Part shown: positions 54,030 to 61,936 of the stretch, piece by piece
Numbering within the stretch: the stretch's first letter is position 1
Layout: the number at the start of each line of letters is the position of its first letter
Assembly: GCA_964388035.1 (NCBI GenBank)
Contig: CAYLZE010000005.1
Coordinates: forward strand, 50,087-114,086
DNA length: 64,000 nt
Direction of reading: 5' to 3'
DNA from: an uncultured archaeon
Lineage (GTDB): Archaea; Asgardarchaeota; Lokiarchaeia; Sigyniarchaeales; SOKP01
Notes under the pieces: generated by a model
The model's input: only the letters and a program-made list of their open reading frames with translations
What the model was told of the DNA's origin: nothing
Databases searched by the model: none
Position numbers and translations under genes: made by a program

Positions 54030-54578
54030 ATGTCAGATGTTAAAGAAGTACATCGTGAATTCAAGCTTGATGAAGAATTTGAGCCAGAATTCTTTAAAGA
54101 TATTGAACGACGGTCAAACATATTACAATGCATTCAATGCGGCACGTGCACTGCATCGTGCGAAAGTGGTCGATGGACTGCCTTAAAAACTCGATTAATC
54201 ATTAGAAAAGTCGTGTTAGGAGATTTATCGGTTCTAAAAGATCCTGACATTTGGCTCTGTACCACCTGTTATCAGTGTTATGAACGCTGTCCTCGTGATG
54301 TGCGTCCCACGGATGTAATCATGGAATTACGAAATATTGCCACTAAAATGGGGAACATATCTCCCAATCATAGAGCCGTGGTGGGCTATTTAAAAAACAC
54401 CGGACACGCAGTTCCTATTAACGACGCAGTAAGAAAACAACGCGTGGAACTGGGACTTGATGAACTTCCTCCGACCCTGTTCAAATATAAAGGAAAAAAA
54501 GGAGAAGAGGATCTCAAAAATATTCGAGAAAGATTGTTTCCCTTGCCTCTAGAGAAGGGAAAGGAGGGTAAGAATTAA
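54030..54578 (+). CDS. hdrC: Heterodisulfide reductase subunit C
   Basis: CIQCGTCTASC, WLCTTCYQCYERCPR, TGHAVP, LPPT. Confidence 0.93.
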   Translation: MSDVKEVHREFKLDEEFEPEFFKDIERRSNILQCIQCGTCTASCESGRWTALKTRLIIRKVVLGDLSVLKDPDIWLCTTCYQCYERCPRDVRPTDVIMELRNIATKMGNISPNHRAVVGYLKNTGHAVPINDAVRKQRVELGLDELPPTLFKYKGKKGEEDLKNIRERLFPLPLEKGKEGKN

Positions 54579-54579
54579 G

Positions 54580-55497
54580 ATGGTTAAGGAGAATACGTTT
54601 GCCTTCTTTTTGGGTTGCATAATGAATAATAGATACCCGCAGATTGAGAAGTCAACGAAGTACGTTATGGAAAGGTTGGGGTATACTCTATTGGATATGG
54701 AACGAGCCAGTTGCTGTCCGGCACCGGGCGTTCTCCGTTCATTTAATAAAATTGATTGGATGGTACTTGCCGCCCGGAACATTTGCATAGCGGAAAAGTT
54801 AGATGCGGATATTTTAACGGTTTGTAATGGTTGTTTTGGCACGCTTCAAGAGGTAAACAGGCATCTGAAGGAAAATGAAGCGCATCGGGAGTTAGTAAAC
54901 GAAAAATTAAAGCTCATTGGAGACTACCACTTTAACGGAACAATCGAAGTTAAGCACGTTGCTGAGGTATTGGGATATGAGATTGGTCCGTGGGGCATTG
55001 AGGATTTTATTACCAGGAAAGTACATGCCCGTGTAGCGGTTCATTATGGCTGTCATTTTTTAAAGCCCACGAAAATTAGGGAGATGGACAGTTCAGAAAA
55101 ACCAACAATCGTAGAGGACTTTATAAGTGCGTTGGGAGTTGAGGCCGTGCCATTTAAAGAGCAACTCACATGTTGTGGCGCGGGAGGTGGTCTGAAGGCC
55201 TTTGATGCTCCCTCCAGCATGAGCGTTTTTGCGGAGAAGATGAAGAACATTGATGAAGTGAAGCCAGATTTCATTTTAGATATATGTCCTTTCTGTCATT
55301 TACAATTTGAGACGGGGCAAGATTACTTGAACAAGAATAGGAACATGAATTATGATTATCCGGTAATTCATCTTTCCCAGCTCACGGCGTATTGCATGGG
55401 CATGGATCAAGAATTCGTCGGTTTACAATATCAGATGATGGGGAAAGACTACATTTTTGGAAAAGATACTAAAAAAGGAGAGGAGGAGATGGTTTAA
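54580..55497 (+). CDS. hdrB: Heterodisulfide reductase subunit B
   Basis: Two CCG domains: FLGCIMNNRYP, SCCPAPG, CNGC; HYGCH, CCGAGGG, CPFCHLQF. Confidence 0.94.
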   Translation: MVKENTFAFFLGCIMNNRYPQIEKSTKYVMERLGYTLLDMERASCCPAPGVLRSFNKIDWMVLAARNICIAEKLDADILTVCNGCFGTLQEVNRHLKENEAHRELVNEKLKLIGDYHFNGTIEVKHVAEVLGYEIGPWGIEDFITRKVHARVAVHYGCHFLKPTKIREMDSSEKPTIVEDFISALGVEAVPFKEQLTCCGAGGGLKAFDAPSSMSVFAEKMKNIDEVKPDFILDICPFCHLQFETGQDYLNKNRNMNYDYPVIHLSQLTAYCMGMDQEFVGLQYQMMGKDYIFGKDTKKGEEEMV

Positions 55498-55498
55498 G

Positions 55499-57535
55499 TT
55501 GACAATTAAAGAACACAAGTTGGAAAAGACGGCTTCTACAGAAGAACAGGACGAACCAAGTGAAGGGGAAGAGGAACCCCGCATAGGCGTTTTTGTATGT
55601 CATTGCGGGCATAATATTGCCGGTACGGTGGATGTAGAGAGGGTAGCAAAATATGCATCCACGCTTCCAGACGTGGTAAAAGCGGAACATTACATGTTCA
55701 TGTGTTCAAAACCAGGAGTGCAAATGGTAAAGGATTCCATCAAAGAATTGGGGGTGAATCGAACCGTGGTTGCCTCTTGTTCCAAAAATCAACACGGGAA
55801 GACCTTTGCGCACGCGATAGAAGAGATGGGAATCAACAAGCATCGACACCAGCAAGTAAACGTGAGGGAATATTGTAGTTGGGTGCATCAAAAAGATAAA
55901 GAGAAAGCTACTCAAAAAGCTCTCCGCTTGATTGAAGCGGGAGTGAATAGAGCTCGAAAATTAGAGGACGTAGAAACTCGAAAAATAAGCACTACCAAGG
56001 CCGCTTTAGTCATAGGAGGAGGTATTGCAGGACTTCGAGCTGCTAATGATATGGCAGAATTGGGCATCCCGGTCTACTTGGTGGAAAAAGAATCCACGAT
56101 AGGAGGACACATGACTAGATTAAATAAAACATTCCCGACTAATGAATGTCCTCAATGTAGCATATCACCTTTGACGAATGGAGTTGCGAATCATCCTTTA
56201 ATCGAATTATATACGAATGCTCAAGTTAAGGATGTTGAGGGTTCTCTTGGGAACTTTGAGATAGAAGTGGAAATCAAACCTCGATATGTCAATGACAACT
56301 GTACGAGCTGTGGAGAATGTGCCAAGAATTGTCCTGTAGAAGTACCAAGTGAGTGGGATATGGGAATGTCCATGCGTAATGCTATCTATAAGGCATATCC
56401 ACAAGCGATTCCCGCTACGTATGTTAGGGATAAAAAAACGTGTATTGAATGTAACACTTGTATAAATGTTTGCCCCGTAAATGCTATTGATTTTTCGATG
56501 GAAAAAGAAACGAAGAAATTCAAGGTGGGATCCATCGTGGTTGCTGCGGGTTATGATGAATATGATCCTACAGAAATAGAACCATACCATTATGGACAAG
56601 AAGGGTATGAGGATGTTATTACTCAATTAAAGTTAGAGAGAATGCTTTCTCCCACTTCAATGACCAATAGTGAGGTTCTTAGGCCATCAGATGGTAAGAT
56701 CCCGAAGAATATCGTAATGATTCAATGTGTTGGAAGCAGAAATGATCAAGTAGGAAATGCATATTGCACGGGAGTGTGCTGTAAAATCGCTGTTAAAAAT
56801 TCTGGGATTGTTAAAGAAATGTATCCTGATTCTAATGTTACTATTTGCTATATAGATATCAGAACCCCCGGGTTGAACTTTGAGGAATATTATAAATCTT
56901 CCCAAGAAAAAGGAGTGCGATTTATTCGGGGAAGACCCTCGGAAATAGTGAGAGATCCCAACACGGGAGAATTAAGAGTTATTGTTGAAGACACCCTTAG
57001 CCAAACACCCTTACAATTAAAAGCAGATTTAGTAATTCTTTCGGCGGCAATGGTTCCTCCTGAAGGAATCGGACCACTTGGATCAAAATTACATGTCTTG
57101 CGCTCAAAGGAGGGTTTTCTCAAGGAGTTCCATATCAAGATGAACCCTACTCTTAGCAGCAAGGGTGGAATCTTTTTGGCGGGAGCGATTCAAGGACCTA
57201 AAGATATATCGGAAACTGTCGCTCATGCAGGAAGTGCCGCGGCATTAGCAGCTGCACCCTTAGTTAAGGGATACATTGAAAAAGAAATGCTAGTACCCTC
57301 GGTTGCCAGAGATTTATGCACAAAGTGTGGGTTATGTGCAACCGTGTGCGCTCCCGCGGCAATTATTTTTAATGAAGAAGGTTATCCCGTTGTTAATGAG
57401 GTTGCTTGTAAATCTTGTGGAATGTGCATGCCCGCATGTCCTACAGCAGCGATTCAGCTCTTGAATTTTCGTGATGATCAACTATTAGATGAAATTAAAG
57501 CAGTATCTGGAGGAGGTGTGTGTGCCGATGACTGA
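55499..57535 (+). CDS. hdrA: Heterodisulfide reductase subunit A
   Basis: RIGVFVCHCGHNI, GGGIAG, KTFPTNECPQCS, inserted ferredoxin, QCVGSR...CTGVCC, C-terminal ferredoxin. TTG start at 55499 inferred. Confidence 0.94.
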   Translation: MTIKEHKLEKTASTEEQDEPSEGEEEPRIGVFVCHCGHNIAGTVDVERVAKYASTLPDVVKAEHYMFMCSKPGVQMVKDSIKELGVNRTVVASCSKNQHGKTFAHAIEEMGINKHRHQQVNVREYCSWVHQKDKEKATQKALRLIEAGVNRARKLEDVETRKISTTKAALVIGGGIAGLRAANDMAELGIPVYLVEKESTIGGHMTRLNKTFPTNECPQCSISPLTNGVANHPLIELYTNAQVKDVEGSLGNFEIEVEIKPRYVNDNCTSCGECAKNCPVEVPSEWDMGMSMRNAIYKAYPQAIPATYVRDKKTCIECNTCINVCPVNAIDFSMEKETKKFKVGSIVVAAGYDEYDPTEIEPYHYGQEGYEDVITQLKLERMLSPTSMTNSEVLRPSDGKIPKNIVMIQCVGSRNDQVGNAYCTGVCCKIAVKNSGIVKEMYPDSNVTICYIDIRTPGLNFEEYYKSSQEKGVRFIRGRPSEIVRDPNTGELRVIVEDTLSQTPLQLKADLVILSAAMVPPEGIGPLGSKLHVLRSKEGFLKEFHIKMNPTLSSKGGIFLAGAIQGPKDISETVAHAGSAAALAAAPLVKGYIEKEMLVPSVARDLCTKCGLCATVCAPAAIIFNEEGYPVVNEVACKSCGMCMPACPTAAIQLLNFRDDQLLDEIKAVSGGGVCADD

Positions 57536-57980
57536 ATGTGAAGTCGAAGAGCAAGAAATAAAAGATAAATATGAAAACATCGTGGTTTTCATGTGTAATG
57601 AATGTGGTCAAGGATCAGCAAACACGGCGGGTGTGGCCCGGATGGGATATGATCCAGCTATTCGAATCGTTCGCGTCCAATGCACCGGCCAAGTAGGACC
57701 CATTCAAATCATGGATGCAATCAACAACGGAGCAGATTCTGTGGCATGTATTGGTTGTTGTTTGGGGGCATGTCATTTCTTTAATGGAAATATCCTCTCA
57801 ATGCATCGAATAAAGTTATTAAAAAAGTTGTTTAAGGAGTTAGGGTATAGCGATCAATTTGTCAATCAGTATACTTCGCGTGCTGCAGAAGGTGAGACCG
57901 CAACTGGAGATTTTGAGGATATAGTGGAACGATTATCAAAAGCAATAAAAGAAGGAGGAGTCATAAAGAATGAATGTTAA
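57528..57980 (+). CDS. mvhD: MvhD [2Fe-2S] subunit
   Basis: FMCNEC...AG..RM.Y...IRIVRVQCTG, GC..GACHF..GN; SD GGAGGAGG. Confidence 0.88.
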   Translation: MTECEVEEQEIKDKYENIVVFMCNECGQGSANTAGVARMGYDPAIRIVRVQCTGQVGPIQIMDAINNGADSVACIGCCLGACHFFNGNILSMHRIKLLKKLFKELGYSDQFVNQYTSRAAEGETATGDFEDIVERLSKAIKEGGVIKNEC

Positions 57981-59211
57981 AGTTTTTCAGTTCGGTGGAT
58001 GTAATAAATGTTTTCATGAAGCCTTGTTATTGAAGGAAAATGATGCGCTAAACGTGGAATTTATTTCCGATCCAAAGTCTTGGAAAGAAGAAAAAGCAGA
58101 TGTATCCGTAATTGCAGGACATTTAATTCCAAAAGATAAAGAAATATTAGGAAGGATTAAAGCAAATTCCGGTAAAGTAATTGGATATGGAGATTGTACC
58201 ACAACAGGAGGAGTTTTTGCCTTAGCAAACCAAAGAGGCTTTGACATAACACCCTTAAAAGAATTCATCCCAAATGCCATGAACATTAATAGTTGTTTGG
58301 GTGAAATTGACGAATTAAGGACCGAAATTGAGGGAAAAGAGCAATCCAAGTTGGGAGTTTTATGCAATTCTTGTAAACGGAAAGCAACTTGTGAATATTT
58401 GGAAGAGGTACATCGTCAAATTGAATTTGAAGATGAAGAGACATGCTTTAATGACTTGGGATATCTTTGTAATGGATTCATCGCTAAAGAATGCAAGGAA
58501 CGCTGCGTGGACTTTAATGCGCCCTGTCGGGGATGCAAACCCATGGTAGAACGCTCGGGAATACGAATGTTAGGGATGTTTGGAACCTTGATGGGGAATA
58601 TTGATATGGCCACGGAACATTCCGAGAAAGGAGCTACGGACAAATTAGCCGATGCAGAGGACGATCTCACGCGAAGCTTGCCCGATGTAGTAGGGAATTT
58701 TTTTAGGTTTTCTCTCCGTACTTCAGGATTACCCAAAGGAAGGATTCCACCATCTGGTAGTCTATTGGAAAATGTGTTCACGGGTCGATTGATAGAAGAA
58801 TTACCTTTAATTGCCGGATTGCTTGGTGGAGATCGATGCATCTCTTTCATGTTAAAATTCATAGAACCATATGAAAAAGCTAACGGGATTGAAATTAGTC
58901 CTAAGACGCAAGAATATAGACAGCATTTATTAGAATTAGAACAAGATTTACAATCAGCGATAAAGGAAGAAGATCCTCAGAAATATAAGGAAATCACGAA
59001 AGAAATAAGAAAAATTGCTGGAAATATGAATTTATCTAACATGTTTTTTGGTGGATTTCGATCTCAAATTGATGGACAAGATAATTTTGAAGATTATAAA
59101 GTACATTTATTCGATATAATTGAGGGTACCTATAAAAATGGTACACTTGAATATGAAATCGATTCAAATGGAATAGTAAAACAAATAAAAATTAAGGAGG
59201 AAAAGAAATGA
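57970..59211 (+). CDS. Atypical MvhG-like Fe-S protein with C-terminal extension
   Basis: GCNKC, YGDCTTTGGV, CNSC, CFNDLGYLCNG, C...C....PCRGC, FFRFSL; about 150 extra C-terminal residues. Confidence 0.75.
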   Translation: MNVKVFQFGGCNKCFHEALLLKENDALNVEFISDPKSWKEEKADVSVIAGHLIPKDKEILGRIKANSGKVIGYGDCTTTGGVFALANQRGFDITPLKEFIPNAMNINSCLGEIDELRTEIEGKEQSKLGVLCNSCKRKATCEYLEEVHRQIEFEDEETCFNDLGYLCNGFIAKECKERCVDFNAPCRGCKPMVERSGIRMLGMFGTLMGNIDMATEHSEKGATDKLADAEDDLTRSLPDVVGNFFRFSLRTSGLPKGRIPPSGSLLENVFTGRLIEELPLIAGLLGGDRCISFMLKFIEPYEKANGIEISPKTQEYRQHLLELEQDLQSAIKEEDPQKYKEITKEIRKIAGNMNLSNMFFGGFRSQIDGQDNFEDYKVHLFDIIEGTYKNGTLEYEIDSNGIVKQIKIKEEKK

Positions 59212-61670
59212 GTTTTGCATTATTAAAAGAAGAAATAATTGACGCAGGCTTATGCCAAGGATGTGGACTTTGTGCGGGATCATGCAAGCATATTGAAATG
59301 GATGTTATGCGTCCTAATATCAAAGATTATTGCATTTTAGAAAGAGGTGCGGAAGATTGTGGAAAATGTTATCAAAATTGTCCTCAAGTAAAACAAAAAT
59401 CATTTAAAGAAAAACAACCCACGGCTATTTATTCTTTAAGAAGTACTAATCCCGAAATTTTAGAGAAAGCAACAAGTGGAGGATTTATTACAGCTCTTAC
59501 GAAACATCTGTTGGAAGAAGGGATTTTAAAAAATATCGTCATGGTCCAAAATGTAGATGATCGAGCAAAAGCTTCGATTGTTTCGGATCCCAAGGAGGTA
59601 ATTAAGAAAGCCGGAGTTGTATATGGTCGTTCGGGAGTGCTAGAAAAGTTAGTTACCCTTACTGGTGATCCCACGGAGCAAATTGGTATTGTAGGCGTTC
59701 CTTGCGAAATGCGTGGTGCAGCGGAATTAGAAACGGAAATGAATCGAGACATATTAAAAATGGGATTATTTTGCAATTCGAGCATACGAACAGTACAAAC
59801 GGATCATGGATTGGTTTGTTCACCTTGCTGTAATGGATGTCCCTCGGGTGTTAATGCTCAAGGATATATATCCTTGATTCGAGAAGGTAAATATCAAGAA
59901 GCCGTCGATTTAATTAGAGAAAACAATCCCCTACCCTCGATTTGTGGAAGGATTTGTACTCATGAATGCGAGCATGGCTGTACTTTGATCGGAGAAGACC
60001 ATCCTGTTGCTATACGGGAGCTTAAAAAGTTTATCACAGAATGGGAGATAACCAATTCCGATAAAAAGTTTTCTCGTTGGAGTAAAAATAAGAAAGATAA
60101 GATTGCTATCATTGGATCGGGGCCAGCAGGACTTACAGCAGGATACTATTTGGCGAAAATGGGATATCAACCAACCATATTTGAGAAGAGTGATCAAGTC
60201 GGAGGCATGTTAAGGTTCGGGGTACCGCAGTTCAGGCTACCCAATTATGTTTTAGATTATGATATTCAAATGATCAAACGAGTTGGCGTGAATATTCAAA
60301 CAAATAAACCTTTTGGTCCTGAGATGACCATCGAAAATTTAAAAGATGAGGGATTTAAAGCTATTTTCATAGCTATTGGGCAATATAAACCAAGAACTCT
60401 TCATCTTGAAGGAGAAGATTTACCAAATGTATATGTTGCAATCAATTTTCTGATTGATAGGAAATACCGATATTGGGAACAGAAGGAGGAGTTTGTAGGC
60501 AAAACAATCGGGATTATTGGAGGAGGCCCCGTAGCAGTAGATGTTGGTCAAACTGCCCTAAGATTAGGAGCTGAAGAGGTTCATCTGGTGGATATAATGA
60601 ACGAACAAGATTTAGAATTAGTACTCAGGGATATCCCCGAAAATGAGAAACCTTTGATGAAATATCATTACACCACTTCAACTTCCAAAATCACACAAAA
60701 TTCAGAAAAGAAATTGGTGTTGAATTGTTATAAAATCGAATGGGGAGAACCAAATGAAACTGGGAGAAAAGAGTTAAAAAAAGTGGAAAACTCAGATTAC
60801 ACCATACCTGTTGACGTGATTGTCATAGCTGTTGGTCAAGCCGTTGATTTTGAACTAATTGACGTGGCAACAAATAACGAAATAGAAAAGGATAGAAATA
60901 AAATTTCAATTAATCCCATAACCTTTGAAACTAACCTTCCAGGAGTCTTCGCAGGTGGGGATATTGTTGCGAATTCTAAGGCGGTTGCTATTGCGGCGAT
61001 TGCACATGGAAAGGAAGCTGCTATTTCCATTGATAGATATCTCAAGGGTGAAGATTTACTACAAGGCAGATATAAACAAGATAAAATGTTCTTTACGGGT
61101 CCACGCAAACCTCCAAAAGATTATTCCCAAAAACCTGAAAGTTTAGAAGAGGCGACAGAGGATGTAAAATGGGATTTTTCTGAAATTGATGCCATGTTTA
61201 ATGAAGATCTTGCATTAAAAGAGGCTCGACGCTGTCTCAGCTGCAATCATTTCTGTGCTCATTGTCAAGACTTTCCTGCTATATATTCCGATTTTTCAGC
61301 GGGAGAGGTAGGCTCTAAGGAAGGATTTACTACGGTGGTTGCGTGGTCAGCAAGAGGAAAAGAAATTATTGATAATGCCATATCCATAGGATTATTTGAA
61401 GTCGGAGAGGTAAATCAGGAAGAATTAAGAAAGGCCATTCATCTTAAATCCAAGCGCGATTTACTAACTTTCGAAAAAACATCTCGTCAACAAGTTCTTG
61501 AATACATTACCAAGCAAGGACCCAGCACCATAAGCAACATGGCAGAAAATTTATCTTTGGAACCCAAAAAAGTGAGATATGAAGCCTTAAGATTAGTCCA
61601 ACTCAATAAAGTTGAAATGAAAATTCAAACGGGTACAAATGATCCATTATTTACCCTAACTTGCGATTAA
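59208..61670 (+). CDS. FrhB/FdhB-like protein with inserted GltD/NfnB-like FAD/NAD(P) oxidoreductase and C-terminal wHTH
   Basis: FrhB N-part (GLCQGCGLC, SGGFITAL, VGVPC, GLFC); GltD block (PCCNGCP...CGRICTHECEHGC, GSGPAG, FAGGD, EARRCLSC); FrhB C-part (CAHCQDF...SDFSAG.VGS..GFTTVV); HTH tail. Confidence 0.8.
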   Translation: MSFALLKEEIIDAGLCQGCGLCAGSCKHIEMDVMRPNIKDYCILERGAEDCGKCYQNCPQVKQKSFKEKQPTAIYSLRSTNPEILEKATSGGFITALTKHLLEEGILKNIVMVQNVDDRAKASIVSDPKEVIKKAGVVYGRSGVLEKLVTLTGDPTEQIGIVGVPCEMRGAAELETEMNRDILKMGLFCNSSIRTVQTDHGLVCSPCCNGCPSGVNAQGYISLIREGKYQEAVDLIRENNPLPSICGRICTHECEHGCTLIGEDHPVAIRELKKFITEWEITNSDKKFSRWSKNKKDKIAIIGSGPAGLTAGYYLAKMGYQPTIFEKSDQVGGMLRFGVPQFRLPNYVLDYDIQMIKRVGVNIQTNKPFGPEMTIENLKDEGFKAIFIAIGQYKPRTLHLEGEDLPNVYVAINFLIDRKYRYWEQKEEFVGKTIGIIGGGPVAVDVGQTALRLGAEEVHLVDIMNEQDLELVLRDIPENEKPLMKYHYTTSTSKITQNSEKKLVLNCYKIEWGEPNETGRKELKKVENSDYTIPVDVIVIAVGQAVDFELIDVATNNEIEKDRNKISINPITFETNLPGVFAGGDIVANSKAVAIAAIAHGKEAAISIDRYLKGEDLLQGRYKQDKMFFTGPRKPPKDYSQKPESLEEATEDVKWDFSEIDAMFNEDLALKEARRCLSCNHFCAHCQDFPAIYSDFSAGEVGSKEGFTTVVAWSARGKEIIDNAISIGLFEVGEVNQEELRKAIHLKSKRDLLTFEKTSRQQVLEYITKQGPSTISNMAENLSLEPKKVRYEALRLVQLNKVEMKIQTGTNDPLFTLTCD

Positions 61671-61699: not shown

Positions 61700-61936
61700 A
61701 TGAAATGTGATAGTGAATTAAACGTTTGCGGATTGGTTTGTCCGGTTCCAGCTCTAAAGACTAAGCAAGAATTGCGAAAGATGCGTCCTGGAACGGTGCT
61801 TAAAGTAATTACCGATTACAAGCCAGCCAGCGAATCTGTTCCCAGAGACTTAGCTAAAACCAAGCACAAACATTTAGGAACGGAATTTAATGATGATGAC
61901 GAGCAATGGTACATGTATTTTGAAGTTGTAAAATAA
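61700..61936 (+). CDS. tusA: Second TusA/SirA sulfur carrier
   Basis: LNVCGLVCPVPALKTK (CPxP), LKVITD; SD AAGGAGG. Confidence 0.9.
   Translation: MKCDSELNVCGLVCPVPALKTKQELRKMRPGTVLKVITDYKPASESVPRDLAKTKHKHLGTEFNDDDEQWYMYFEVVK

Follow-up and report, generated by a model that had tools for sequence, protein, structure and literature searches.

A NfnL/GltD-like NAD(P)H dehydrogenase module nested within an FrhB-type subunit of a hydrogenase-free Hdr operon in Lokiarchaeial archaea, and its possible roles

Architecture of the fusion gene

The present analysis concerns an 820-residue fusion protein encoded by an uninterrupted open reading frame at 59208-61670 (+) of a 64,000-nucleotide stretch of DNA, hereafter the window, from an uncultured Asgard archaeon (assembly GCA_964388035.1, contig CAYLZE010000005.1, positions 50,087-114,086 of the forward strand). 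In the protein a ferredoxin domain of the 2x[4Fe-4S] type is joined to a flavodomain of the FrhB type and a winged-helix tail, and the FrhB domain is broken between the second and third cysteines of its own iron-sulfur (Fe-S) cluster (C189...C683) by a 492-residue module related to NfnL and GltD, dehydrogenases of reduced nicotinamide adenine dinucleotide (phosphate), NAD(P)H. An earlier note, made from the letters of the window alone, had described an FrhB sequence ending after GLFC189N and resuming at C683AHC686QDF, and these boundaries are correct to within a few residues; the nested architecture that it proposed is borne out by domain hidden Markov models, by PDB alignments and by a structure model. 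The features of the gene are as follows.

59208-59402 (+): N-terminal 2x[4Fe-4S] ferredoxin domain, residues 1-65; C16, C19, C22, C26 and C42, C51, C54, C58
59403-59777 (+): FrhB-type flavodomain, first part, residues 66-190; GG(F/V)(I/V)T flavin motif, P165-C166, GLFC189
59778-61253 (+): nested NfnL/GltD-like NAD(P)H dehydrogenase module, residues 191-682; Pfam, NCBIfam and PDB matches, model
60591-60593 (+): Asp462 codon, where strand beta2 of the NAD(P) Rossmann fold ends; VDIM in place of YRR
61254-61427 (+): FrhB-type flavodomain, second part, residues 683-740; C683-x2-C686-QDF and the SDFSAGEVGS..G.TTV motif
61428-61667 (+): linker helix and C-terminal winged-helix domain, residues 741-820; penultimate Cys819

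All four Pfam domains of this layout score above the curated cut-offs, which are 22 bits for FrhB_FdhB_N and 23.3 bits for FrhB_FdhB_C: FrhB_FdhB_N at residues 75-146 (55.1 bits), Fer4_20 at 202-283 (77.5 bits), Pyr_redox_2 at 298-601 (81.5 bits), and FrhB_FdhB_C in two stretches around the insert, the best of them at 665-737 (profile positions 79-149, 57.1 bits). Among the NCBIfam models, those for glutamate-synthase-small-subunit-like proteins span 175-687, and the flanks are covered by FrhB/FpoF models. The whole architecture is found in more than 120 clusters (90% identity), at 70-75% identity, and is thus not a chance pattern. Twenty cysteines are invariant in a set of 122 homologues, eight in the ferredoxin domain (each in 121-122 of the 122), four in FrhB cluster 1 and eight in the insert, a number that suffices for five predicted [4Fe-4S] clusters.

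Over residues 5-190 the fusion can be aligned with the ferredoxin-plus-F420-oxidoreductase halves of Fsr, ACDS zeta, FwdI and FrhB. In the PDB sequences, the first part of the flavodomain corresponds to FrhB 14-139 and Fsr 7-169 and the second part to FrhB 191-256, ACDS zeta 264-338 and Fsr 247-333, with the flavin-binding motifs of the FrhB family retained in the flanks. The ligand pattern reported for Fsr cluster 1, PC-X40-C-X54-C-X2-C (PMC10229431), maps to P165-C166, C189, C683 and C686, and all four cysteines are invariant in 122/122 homologues. Between the second and third of these ligands lie 493 residues in the fusion as against 58-62 in the ordinary FrhB paralogues of the same genome, and this comparison indicates that the insert replaces the 58-62-residue segment of the paralogues, rather than being added to it; no remnant of that segment is visible in the fusion upon alignment with the paralogues and with the short variants described below.

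A full-length AlphaFold model, built with 48 homologues, reached a mean predicted local distance difference test score (pLDDT) of 70 and a predicted template modelling score (pTM) of 0.49, with the Fe-S regions below a pLDDT of 50 and low values also in the ferredoxin domain at the N-terminus. A whole-model Foldseek search returned only Nfn, DPD and GltS chains among the matches listed, and it was VIA-align, run against 48,161 representative chains, that brought out the FrhB fold. By this method 9n5v_A (Z 27.8) and 8oh5_C (Z 26.9) match model residues 203-681, and residues 65-758, with the insert skipped, align with FrhB 9r51_B (Z 22.5, root-mean-square deviation (rmsd) 3.5 Å, 220/282 residues). 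The flanks likewise match 8rvu_E, which is the formate dehydrogenase beta chain (FdhB-type) in the Elp-Hdr entry, at Z 21.5 and rmsd 2.3 Å over 191 residues. The chains 8rvu_E, 8rja_K and 8riu_E span Z 20.9-21.5; FwdI scores Z 21.4, ACDS zeta Z 20.9 and HCAR 5dqr Z 17.2. At the level of a predicted model, and on the strength of the 9r51_B alignment, the flanks do form an FrhB fold.

The flavin adenine dinucleotide (FAD) of the FrhB part is probably a site for coenzyme F420 and its reduced form, F420H2. The genome carries cofH and cofD of F420 biosynthesis above cut-offs together with 12 FrhB_C matches, and a search of it for Fno gave nothing above cut-off. A rival explanation, which we regard as distinctly unlikely, holds that the FrhB flavin site lacks F420 reactivity, so that the FrhB part would be a flavin/Fe-S relay or scaffold and the protein an NADH:Hdr donor. 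Such a loss would be consistent with the disappearance of the 58-62-residue segment, which by numbering, and not by superposition, may be the "lid region 204-253" of the F420H2-oxidase domain of MtFsr (PMC10229431); with this lid replaced, F420 binding by the FrhB part may be altered or lost. HCAR moreover provides an example of an FrhB-fold enzyme that does not use F420. However, the retained flavin-binding motifs and the F420-related gene complement of the genome both speak against this explanation, and variants in which the core of the NfnL-like module has been deleted are maintained in the operon, which would be hard to explain if the FrhB part offered no substrate site of its own.

The nested module and its nicotinamide site

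The closest solved relative of the insert in a PDB sequence search is NfnA of T. sibiricus (9n5u, E 1e-89), with a subunit of C. saccharolyticus NfnABC (9bov) and StnC (8oh5) as further relatives, and then NfnB (4ylf), NfnI, GltD and DPD. The match to T. maritima NfnB is split by HMMER, such that residues 205-615 correspond to NfnB 45-462 and residues 644-679 to NfnB 7-42; the order of the module is therefore a circular permutation of that in NfnB/GltD, and the module is colinear, permutation included, with NfnA and StnC of the Bfu-type NfnABC. The "EAxRCLxC" segment that normally opens a Fer4_20 domain stands last in the insert, the final 36 residues of which (644-679, ending RC676LSC679) are the permuted N-terminus of NfnL/GltD and not FrhB sequence, and the first CxxC of the Fer4_20 unit thus comes from this permuted C-terminal segment. 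The eight ligand cysteines of the insert (C207, C211, C246, C250, C254, C258, C676 and C679) are all invariant; their distribution between clusters we take to be that of DPD, the single analogue used.

The permuted form is widespread, as most of the 150 best representatives listed (at 50% identity) match residues 204-687. Stand-alone permuted proteins start with "SPCxxxCP" and end with "RCLRC", and the permuted module also occurs in proteins containing HdrC/HdrB, HdrA-MvhD, POR or DHODH. It behaves as a redox plug-in that is mobile. Within NfnABC it forms a non-bifurcating NADPH entry whose two clusters supply the Fe-S chain (PMC12018979). Neither the operon nor its flanks hold a gene for an NfnS/NfnA partner subunit with a [2Fe-2S] cluster and a second FAD; bifurcation of the NfnSL type at the FAD of the insert was accordingly ruled out, given the missing NfnS-like partner and a module of the non-bifurcating NfnA type. 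As a separate observation, a 920-residue HdrD-like protein comprising a Fer4 dicluster, an NfnL-like module and two CCG domains (L091:1104-3863 (-), from G279:C21) carries the closest paralogue of the insert, at 52-55% identity and likewise with VDIL at the end of beta2. Its gene lies near one for an aldehyde:ferredoxin oxidoreductase, and similar frames of ~922 residues are present in many genomes of the family. This protein looks like a one-chain NADH-linked disulfide reductase, and the presence of a VDIL-type module in it suggests module shuffling within the lineage.

The motifs that the earlier note had picked out in the insert, GSGPAG (303-308), GGGPVAVD (438-445) and VDIM (461-464), are all there, and 118-122 of the 122 homologues conserve them. 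After strand beta2, all five NADPH-type structures aligned read YRR(S/T)xxEMPA, whereas the fusion reads VDIMNEQDLELV. Position 462 is Asp in 118/122 and Glu in 3/122 homologues, and among 85 representative modules that could be aligned at the end of beta2, 55 have YRR and only 5 an acidic residue. Asp or Glu stands at the end of beta2 in all operon-linked orthologues, including distant ones, which read LIDIQ in MK-D1 and TEIQ or AEIR in others. Some Promethearchaeum species possess a second fusion paralogue with an NADPH-type YRRS..ELPAR (L066:8540-10546, L069:253-2706, also P0122), and in L066 it lies ~780 nucleotides downstream of the operon-linked copy of the acidic type. The replacement of the NADPH-type YRR by an acidic residue thus holds across orthologues and is set off by the YRR paralogue, and the contrast between acidic residue and YRR supports a putative NADH-type site in the insert.

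Operon, distribution and winged-helix tail

Upstream and downstream of the fusion, the operon and its possible last gene comprise the following.

54030-54578 (+): hdrC, by Pfam and NCBIfam
54580-55497 (+): hdrB, by Pfam and NCBIfam
55457-57535 (+): hdrA, by Pfam and NCBIfam; the true start is probably later
57489-57980 (+): mvhD, by Pfam and NCBIfam
57970-59211 (+): gene for an MvhG-like Fe-S protein of 413 residues, with Oxidored_q6 at 26-109 and a VhuG-like stretch at 120-190
61700-61936 (+): TusA-like gene, 78 residues, its CGLVCPVP read from the translation and not from a family scan

The start codon of the fusion shares the tetranucleotide ATGA with the stop of the mvhG-like gene and is preceded, 8 nucleotides upstream, by GGAGG, and the fusion is therefore translationally coupled to the mvhG-like gene. 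The order hdrC-hdrB-hdrA-mvhD-mvhG-like-fusion recurs in every Asgard locus with enough upstream DNA (~60 loci), Promethearchaeum syntrophicum MK-D1 and a Sigynarchaeum metagenome-assembled genome (MAG) included, and the mvhG-like gene is always directly upstream of the fusion. The usual upstream neighbours are a divergent lrp, then dsrE, a second DsrE-family gene and dsrH, and then a dsrE2-like gene. On the downstream side the TusA-like gene starts 30 nucleotides after the fusion stop and may be the last gene of the operon; beyond it in the window lies a convergent dsrEFH-like set, homologues of which were not detected downstream in most related loci, a comparison in which the TusA-like gene was not queried. 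The HdrA of the window is of the long methanogen-like form with ferredoxin inserts (NCBIfam HdrA2, 752 bits).

The operon contains no [NiFe] large-subunit gene and no molybdopterin-oxidoreductase-like (FdhA/ElpA-like) gene, and the adjacent partner of the fusion is the Oxidored_q6 MvhG-like protein. The proposal that the fusion replaces the hydrogenase as the input to MvhD/HdrA accordingly gains from the missing large subunit and from an FrhB-type precedent (PMC12350162), with the formation of a complex being the part that is deduced from gene order. Elsewhere in the genome, the only [NiFe] large-subunit match is a 434-residue frame on another contig (G000:C28:2032-4462) adjoining an 802-residue open reading frame with an MvhD domain, and the genome therefore seems to hold a separate hydrogenase-linked Hdr-type module. 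The same genome has 14 MvhD (FlpD) matches, four of which contain one or two in-frame TGA codons (G000 C32:3954-4322, C57:19051-19419, C4:111997-112365 and C45:4166-4525). Selenocysteine codons have been reported for Loki-type archaea, and these TGA codons are possible examples.

In a sample of 301 genomes across the Asgard phylum, the full-length fusion is present in ~36, nearly all of which belong to the window's own GTDB family, a Lokiarchaeial one. Outside this family there are two full-length copies in the same order and one elsewhere, in a genome with 9% contamination; this last (G295:C137:2056-4533, from another family and 74% identical) is the sole full-length copy outside the order and, given the contamination, probably represents a mis-binned contig and not a transfer. 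A wide Asgard spread, as the NCBI names Thor, Heimdall, Odin, Hod and Hermod would suggest, was ruled out by this sample. The concern that the architecture might already be common and characterised thus applies in its first half within one Lokiarchaeial family, and a limited literature search found no paper characterising it. Five near-complete genomes of the family lack both the fusion and the MvhG-like protein. In a Sigynarchaeum springense MAG (L070:9001-11445), a tblastn match extends over residues 1-820 while the frame stops after codon 497, by a frameshift, a pseudogene or an assembly error.

A search with residues 1-195 also returned short relatives of 366-399 residues and 60-69% identity (P0287, P0288, P0297, P0298, P0125, P0304 and P0308). 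They still have a ferredoxin domain, the two parts of FrhB and a tail with its penultimate cysteine, and lack approximately residues 198-254 and 290-640; one of them (L088:9001-10140) occupies the same operon slot, and a short variant occurs in only 1/71 genomes of the family. Between GLFC and CxxCQDF they keep the NfnL fragments "CGCTLIGD.HPV.I.ELK.F" and "F.EI..M.....LQEGK.C.SC", and so derive from the long form by internal deletion; these fragments rule out the short forms as an ancestral, un-inserted FrhB. Their four leftover non-FrhB cysteines (a new CGC and a CxxC) could hold one cluster. That such deletions are maintained implies that the ferredoxin/FrhB/winged-helix core functions without the NAD(P) site.

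The winged helix-turn-helix tail that the earlier note had recognised is matched by sequence models below their cut-offs, residues 742-809 by the Pfam model PF25212 and the tails of 24/31 orthologues by weak Pfam hits of this kind. Modelled alone, the tail adopts a canonical winged helix of H-H-H-beta-beta topology (pLDDT 85), and it superposes at Z 10-11 and rmsd 1.0-2.0 Å over 56-64 residues on the winged helices of ArsR/MarR, Z-alpha, SelB, ESCRT-II and TFE-alpha proteins. Helix 3 is almost invariant (R790, Y791, A793, L794, R795, L796 and Q798). Cys819, located directly after the second wing strand in the model, is present in 117/122 homologues and is missing in the MK-D1 clade and in P0121/P0122. 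No DsrC/TusE entry appeared among the structural or Pfam matches listed for the tail, and a DsrC-like tail, considered on account of the penultimate cysteine, is not favoured, as generic winged helices alone were matched and the cysteine is missing in the MK-D1 clade.

We think, with low confidence, that the tail most likely serves in docking and not in DNA binding. It has been considered that the fusion may instead be a trigger enzyme whose tail binds DNA and reports the redox state of NADH/F420 or of the Fe-S clusters to the sulfur-carrier and hdr promoters, an option that seems to us very improbable. The fold is of a DNA-binding type, closest to ArsR/MarR, the near-invariance of helix 3 would suit a recognition helix, and winged-helix-bearing enzymes such as ROK kinases and archaeal riboflavin kinase are known, and these appear among the structural matches of the tail. 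However, the domain carries almost no net charge (mean -0.8, pI 6.3), the cluster already has beside it a gene for an Lrp-type regulator with an operator of its own, and winged helices also dock proteins, as those of ESCRT-II and TFE among the matches illustrate.

Proposed electron path and comparison with known systems

Taken as a whole, these observations lead us to favour, with fair confidence, a reading in which the fusion is the flavin-containing input (or output) arm of a hydrogenase-independent HdrABC-MvhD complex, similar to FdhB/ElpB and equipped with a second hydride port. The architecture, the acidic motif and the hydrogenase-free operon on which the earlier note had built its functional interpretation all stand; its further proposals, F420 reactivity of the FrhB part, use of NADH rather than NADPH, a transhydrogenase activity and the direction of electron flow, go beyond what the sequence shows. 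A path for electrons through the fusion may be envisaged as follows. C207/C211 stand 18-22 residues after C189, and C676/C679 4-7 residues before C683; with this spacing, judged from sequence alone, the clusters of the insert must adjoin FrhB cluster 1. In Fsr, cluster 1 takes electrons directly from FAD and hands them to the clusters of the ferredoxin domain (PMC10229431). In the fusion, NADH, as the Asp462-type site would prefer, would reduce the FAD of the NfnL-like module, and both electrons would then pass via its two clusters to FrhB cluster 1, which would be a three-way node between the FrhB FAD, the NfnL branch and the N-terminal ferredoxin clusters. HdrA would send one share of the electrons to ferredoxin and the other to a substrate at HdrBC, a disulfide or persulfide, and the flanking TusA, DsrE and DsrE2 genes suggest that this substrate may be carrier-bound sulfane sulfur. 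The same wiring would permit hydride exchange from F420H2 to NAD+, or operation in the reverse, confurcating direction.

Several points weigh against this proposal. The full-length model is mediocre, with low confidence at the Fe-S regions and at the junction, and the adjacency of the clusters is argued from the spacing of their ligands. NADH specificity depends on a single motif, and some NADPH-dependent GltD subfamilies also lack YRR. Gene order is the sole basis for the putative assembly with HdrABC-MvhD; the replaced lid and the example of HCAR bear on the F420 site as discussed above; and the conserved "recognition" helix of the tail is also compatible with DNA binding. Furthermore, with NADH (-320 mV) as sole donor, bifurcation to ferredoxin and a persulfide-type acceptor is thermodynamically tight, and the direction may reverse.

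It is this last point that leads to the confurcating alternative, in which sulfane sulfur or thiols, via HdrBC, and reduced ferredoxin would meet at HdrA and the fusion would deliver output to NAD+ and/or F420, similar to the HdrABC-FrhB confurcation proposed for anaerobic methanotrophic (ANME) archaea or to sHdr sulfur oxidation ending in NAD+ reduction. We think this direction unlikely. Its wiring is identical to that of the favoured reading, nine sulfur-carrier genes surround the operon, and NADH alone is a weak donor for ferredoxin and a low-potential sulfur couple; confurcation to F420 has also been proposed for Hdr-FdhB clusters (PMC12054007, PMC9012536). However, the HdrA is the long methanogen-like form and not a short sHdrA, no gene for a lipoate-binding protein was seen in the stretch examined, and Loki-type archaea are described as fermenters that need electron sinks (10.1101/2025.07.22.663070). 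Returning to the input arm, a further extension, bold and in our estimate rather improbable, would take FrhB cluster 1 to be a true three-way redox node and have one polypeptide couple the F420, NAD and, via HdrA, ferredoxin/sulfur pools, being at once a built-in F420H2:NAD+ transhydrogenase and a dual-donor input to persulfide-linked bifurcation, with the tail and its penultimate cysteine docking or carrying the sulfur substrate.

If this extension were true, F420, NAD and ferredoxin/sulfur would be coupled in the archaeal lineage closest to eukaryotes. Hdr-based bifurcation is central to anaerobic energy metabolism, with H2, formate and F420H2 as its known donors, and an NAD(H) port inside the F420-type subunit would tie an Hdr complex straight to the pool of NADH that fermentation supplies in Loki-type Asgard archaea. 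How these archaea balance their redox state is a key element in syntrophy models of eukaryogenesis. The fusion also offers an example of natural domain engineering, in that a permuted flavoenzyme has been spliced between two ligands of one Fe-S cluster, for which the deletion variants and the YRR paralogue are built-in natural controls. An orthologue in the same operon of the cultured strain MK-D1 makes the idea testable at the bench.

Among known systems, ElpB/FdhB resemble the fusion in being FrhB-fold FAD subunits with [4Fe-4S] clusters whose genes accompany those of MvhD and HdrABC. With MvhD and a partner that is either inactive or active, they can take over from the Mvh hydrogenase in feeding the bifurcating flavin of HdrA, as in Elp-Hdr of M. 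marburgensis and Fdh-Hdr-Fmd of M. hungatei (PMC12350162). However, they have neither an NfnL-like insert nor a winged-helix tail, their partner is a degenerate or active FdhA where that of the fusion is an MvhG-like protein with no large subunit, and the acceptor in methanogens is CoM-S-S-CoB, whereas the operon of the fusion lies amid TusA/DsrE genes. A preprint proposes that, in another Asgard archaeon, sulfur bound to TusA/DsrE is reduced in an Hdr-dependent manner with electrons from a group 3c hydrogenase; as far as consulted, it does not mention the fusion (10.1101/2025.07.22.663070).

For the insert itself, NfnA/StnC are the best match and share with it the permutation and the use, within a larger protein, as a hydride-to-Fe-S entry module that does not bifurcate (PMC12018979). 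They differ in having YRR and using NADPH where the fusion has VDIM, in having Ile or Leu in place of C246, their cluster A7 being reported to use a Lys ligand (PMC12018979), where the fusion keeps an NfnL-like CGRIC, and in their host, which is a NuoG/Fdh-like protein and not FrhB. The N-terminal half of Fsr, ACDS zeta and FwdI have the same ferredoxin-plus-FrhB layout as the flanks of the fusion (aligned over residues 5-177 and 677-750), and modules of this type give other redox enzymes a plug-in interface to F420 (PMC11493965, PMC10229431); unlike the fusion, they retain the residues that separate the second cysteine of cluster 1 from the third (54 in Fsr) and have a single flavin and no NAD(P) site. 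The HdrA9-11 proteins of ANME-1 ("type III HdrA") likewise hold a ~500-residue NfnB/GltD module nested in an Fe-S (ferredoxin) domain of an Hdr-system protein, and the role proposed for that insert is to let NAD(P)H enter Hdr chemistry (PMC9012536, PMC12054007). There, however, the host is HdrA itself, in another lineage. A limited literature search found no description of an NfnL/GltD module nested in an FrhB domain. FrhB-type Hdr donors and NfnB-like inserts in HdrA are thus already known, and what appears to be new here is an NfnL-like module within an FrhB-type subunit.

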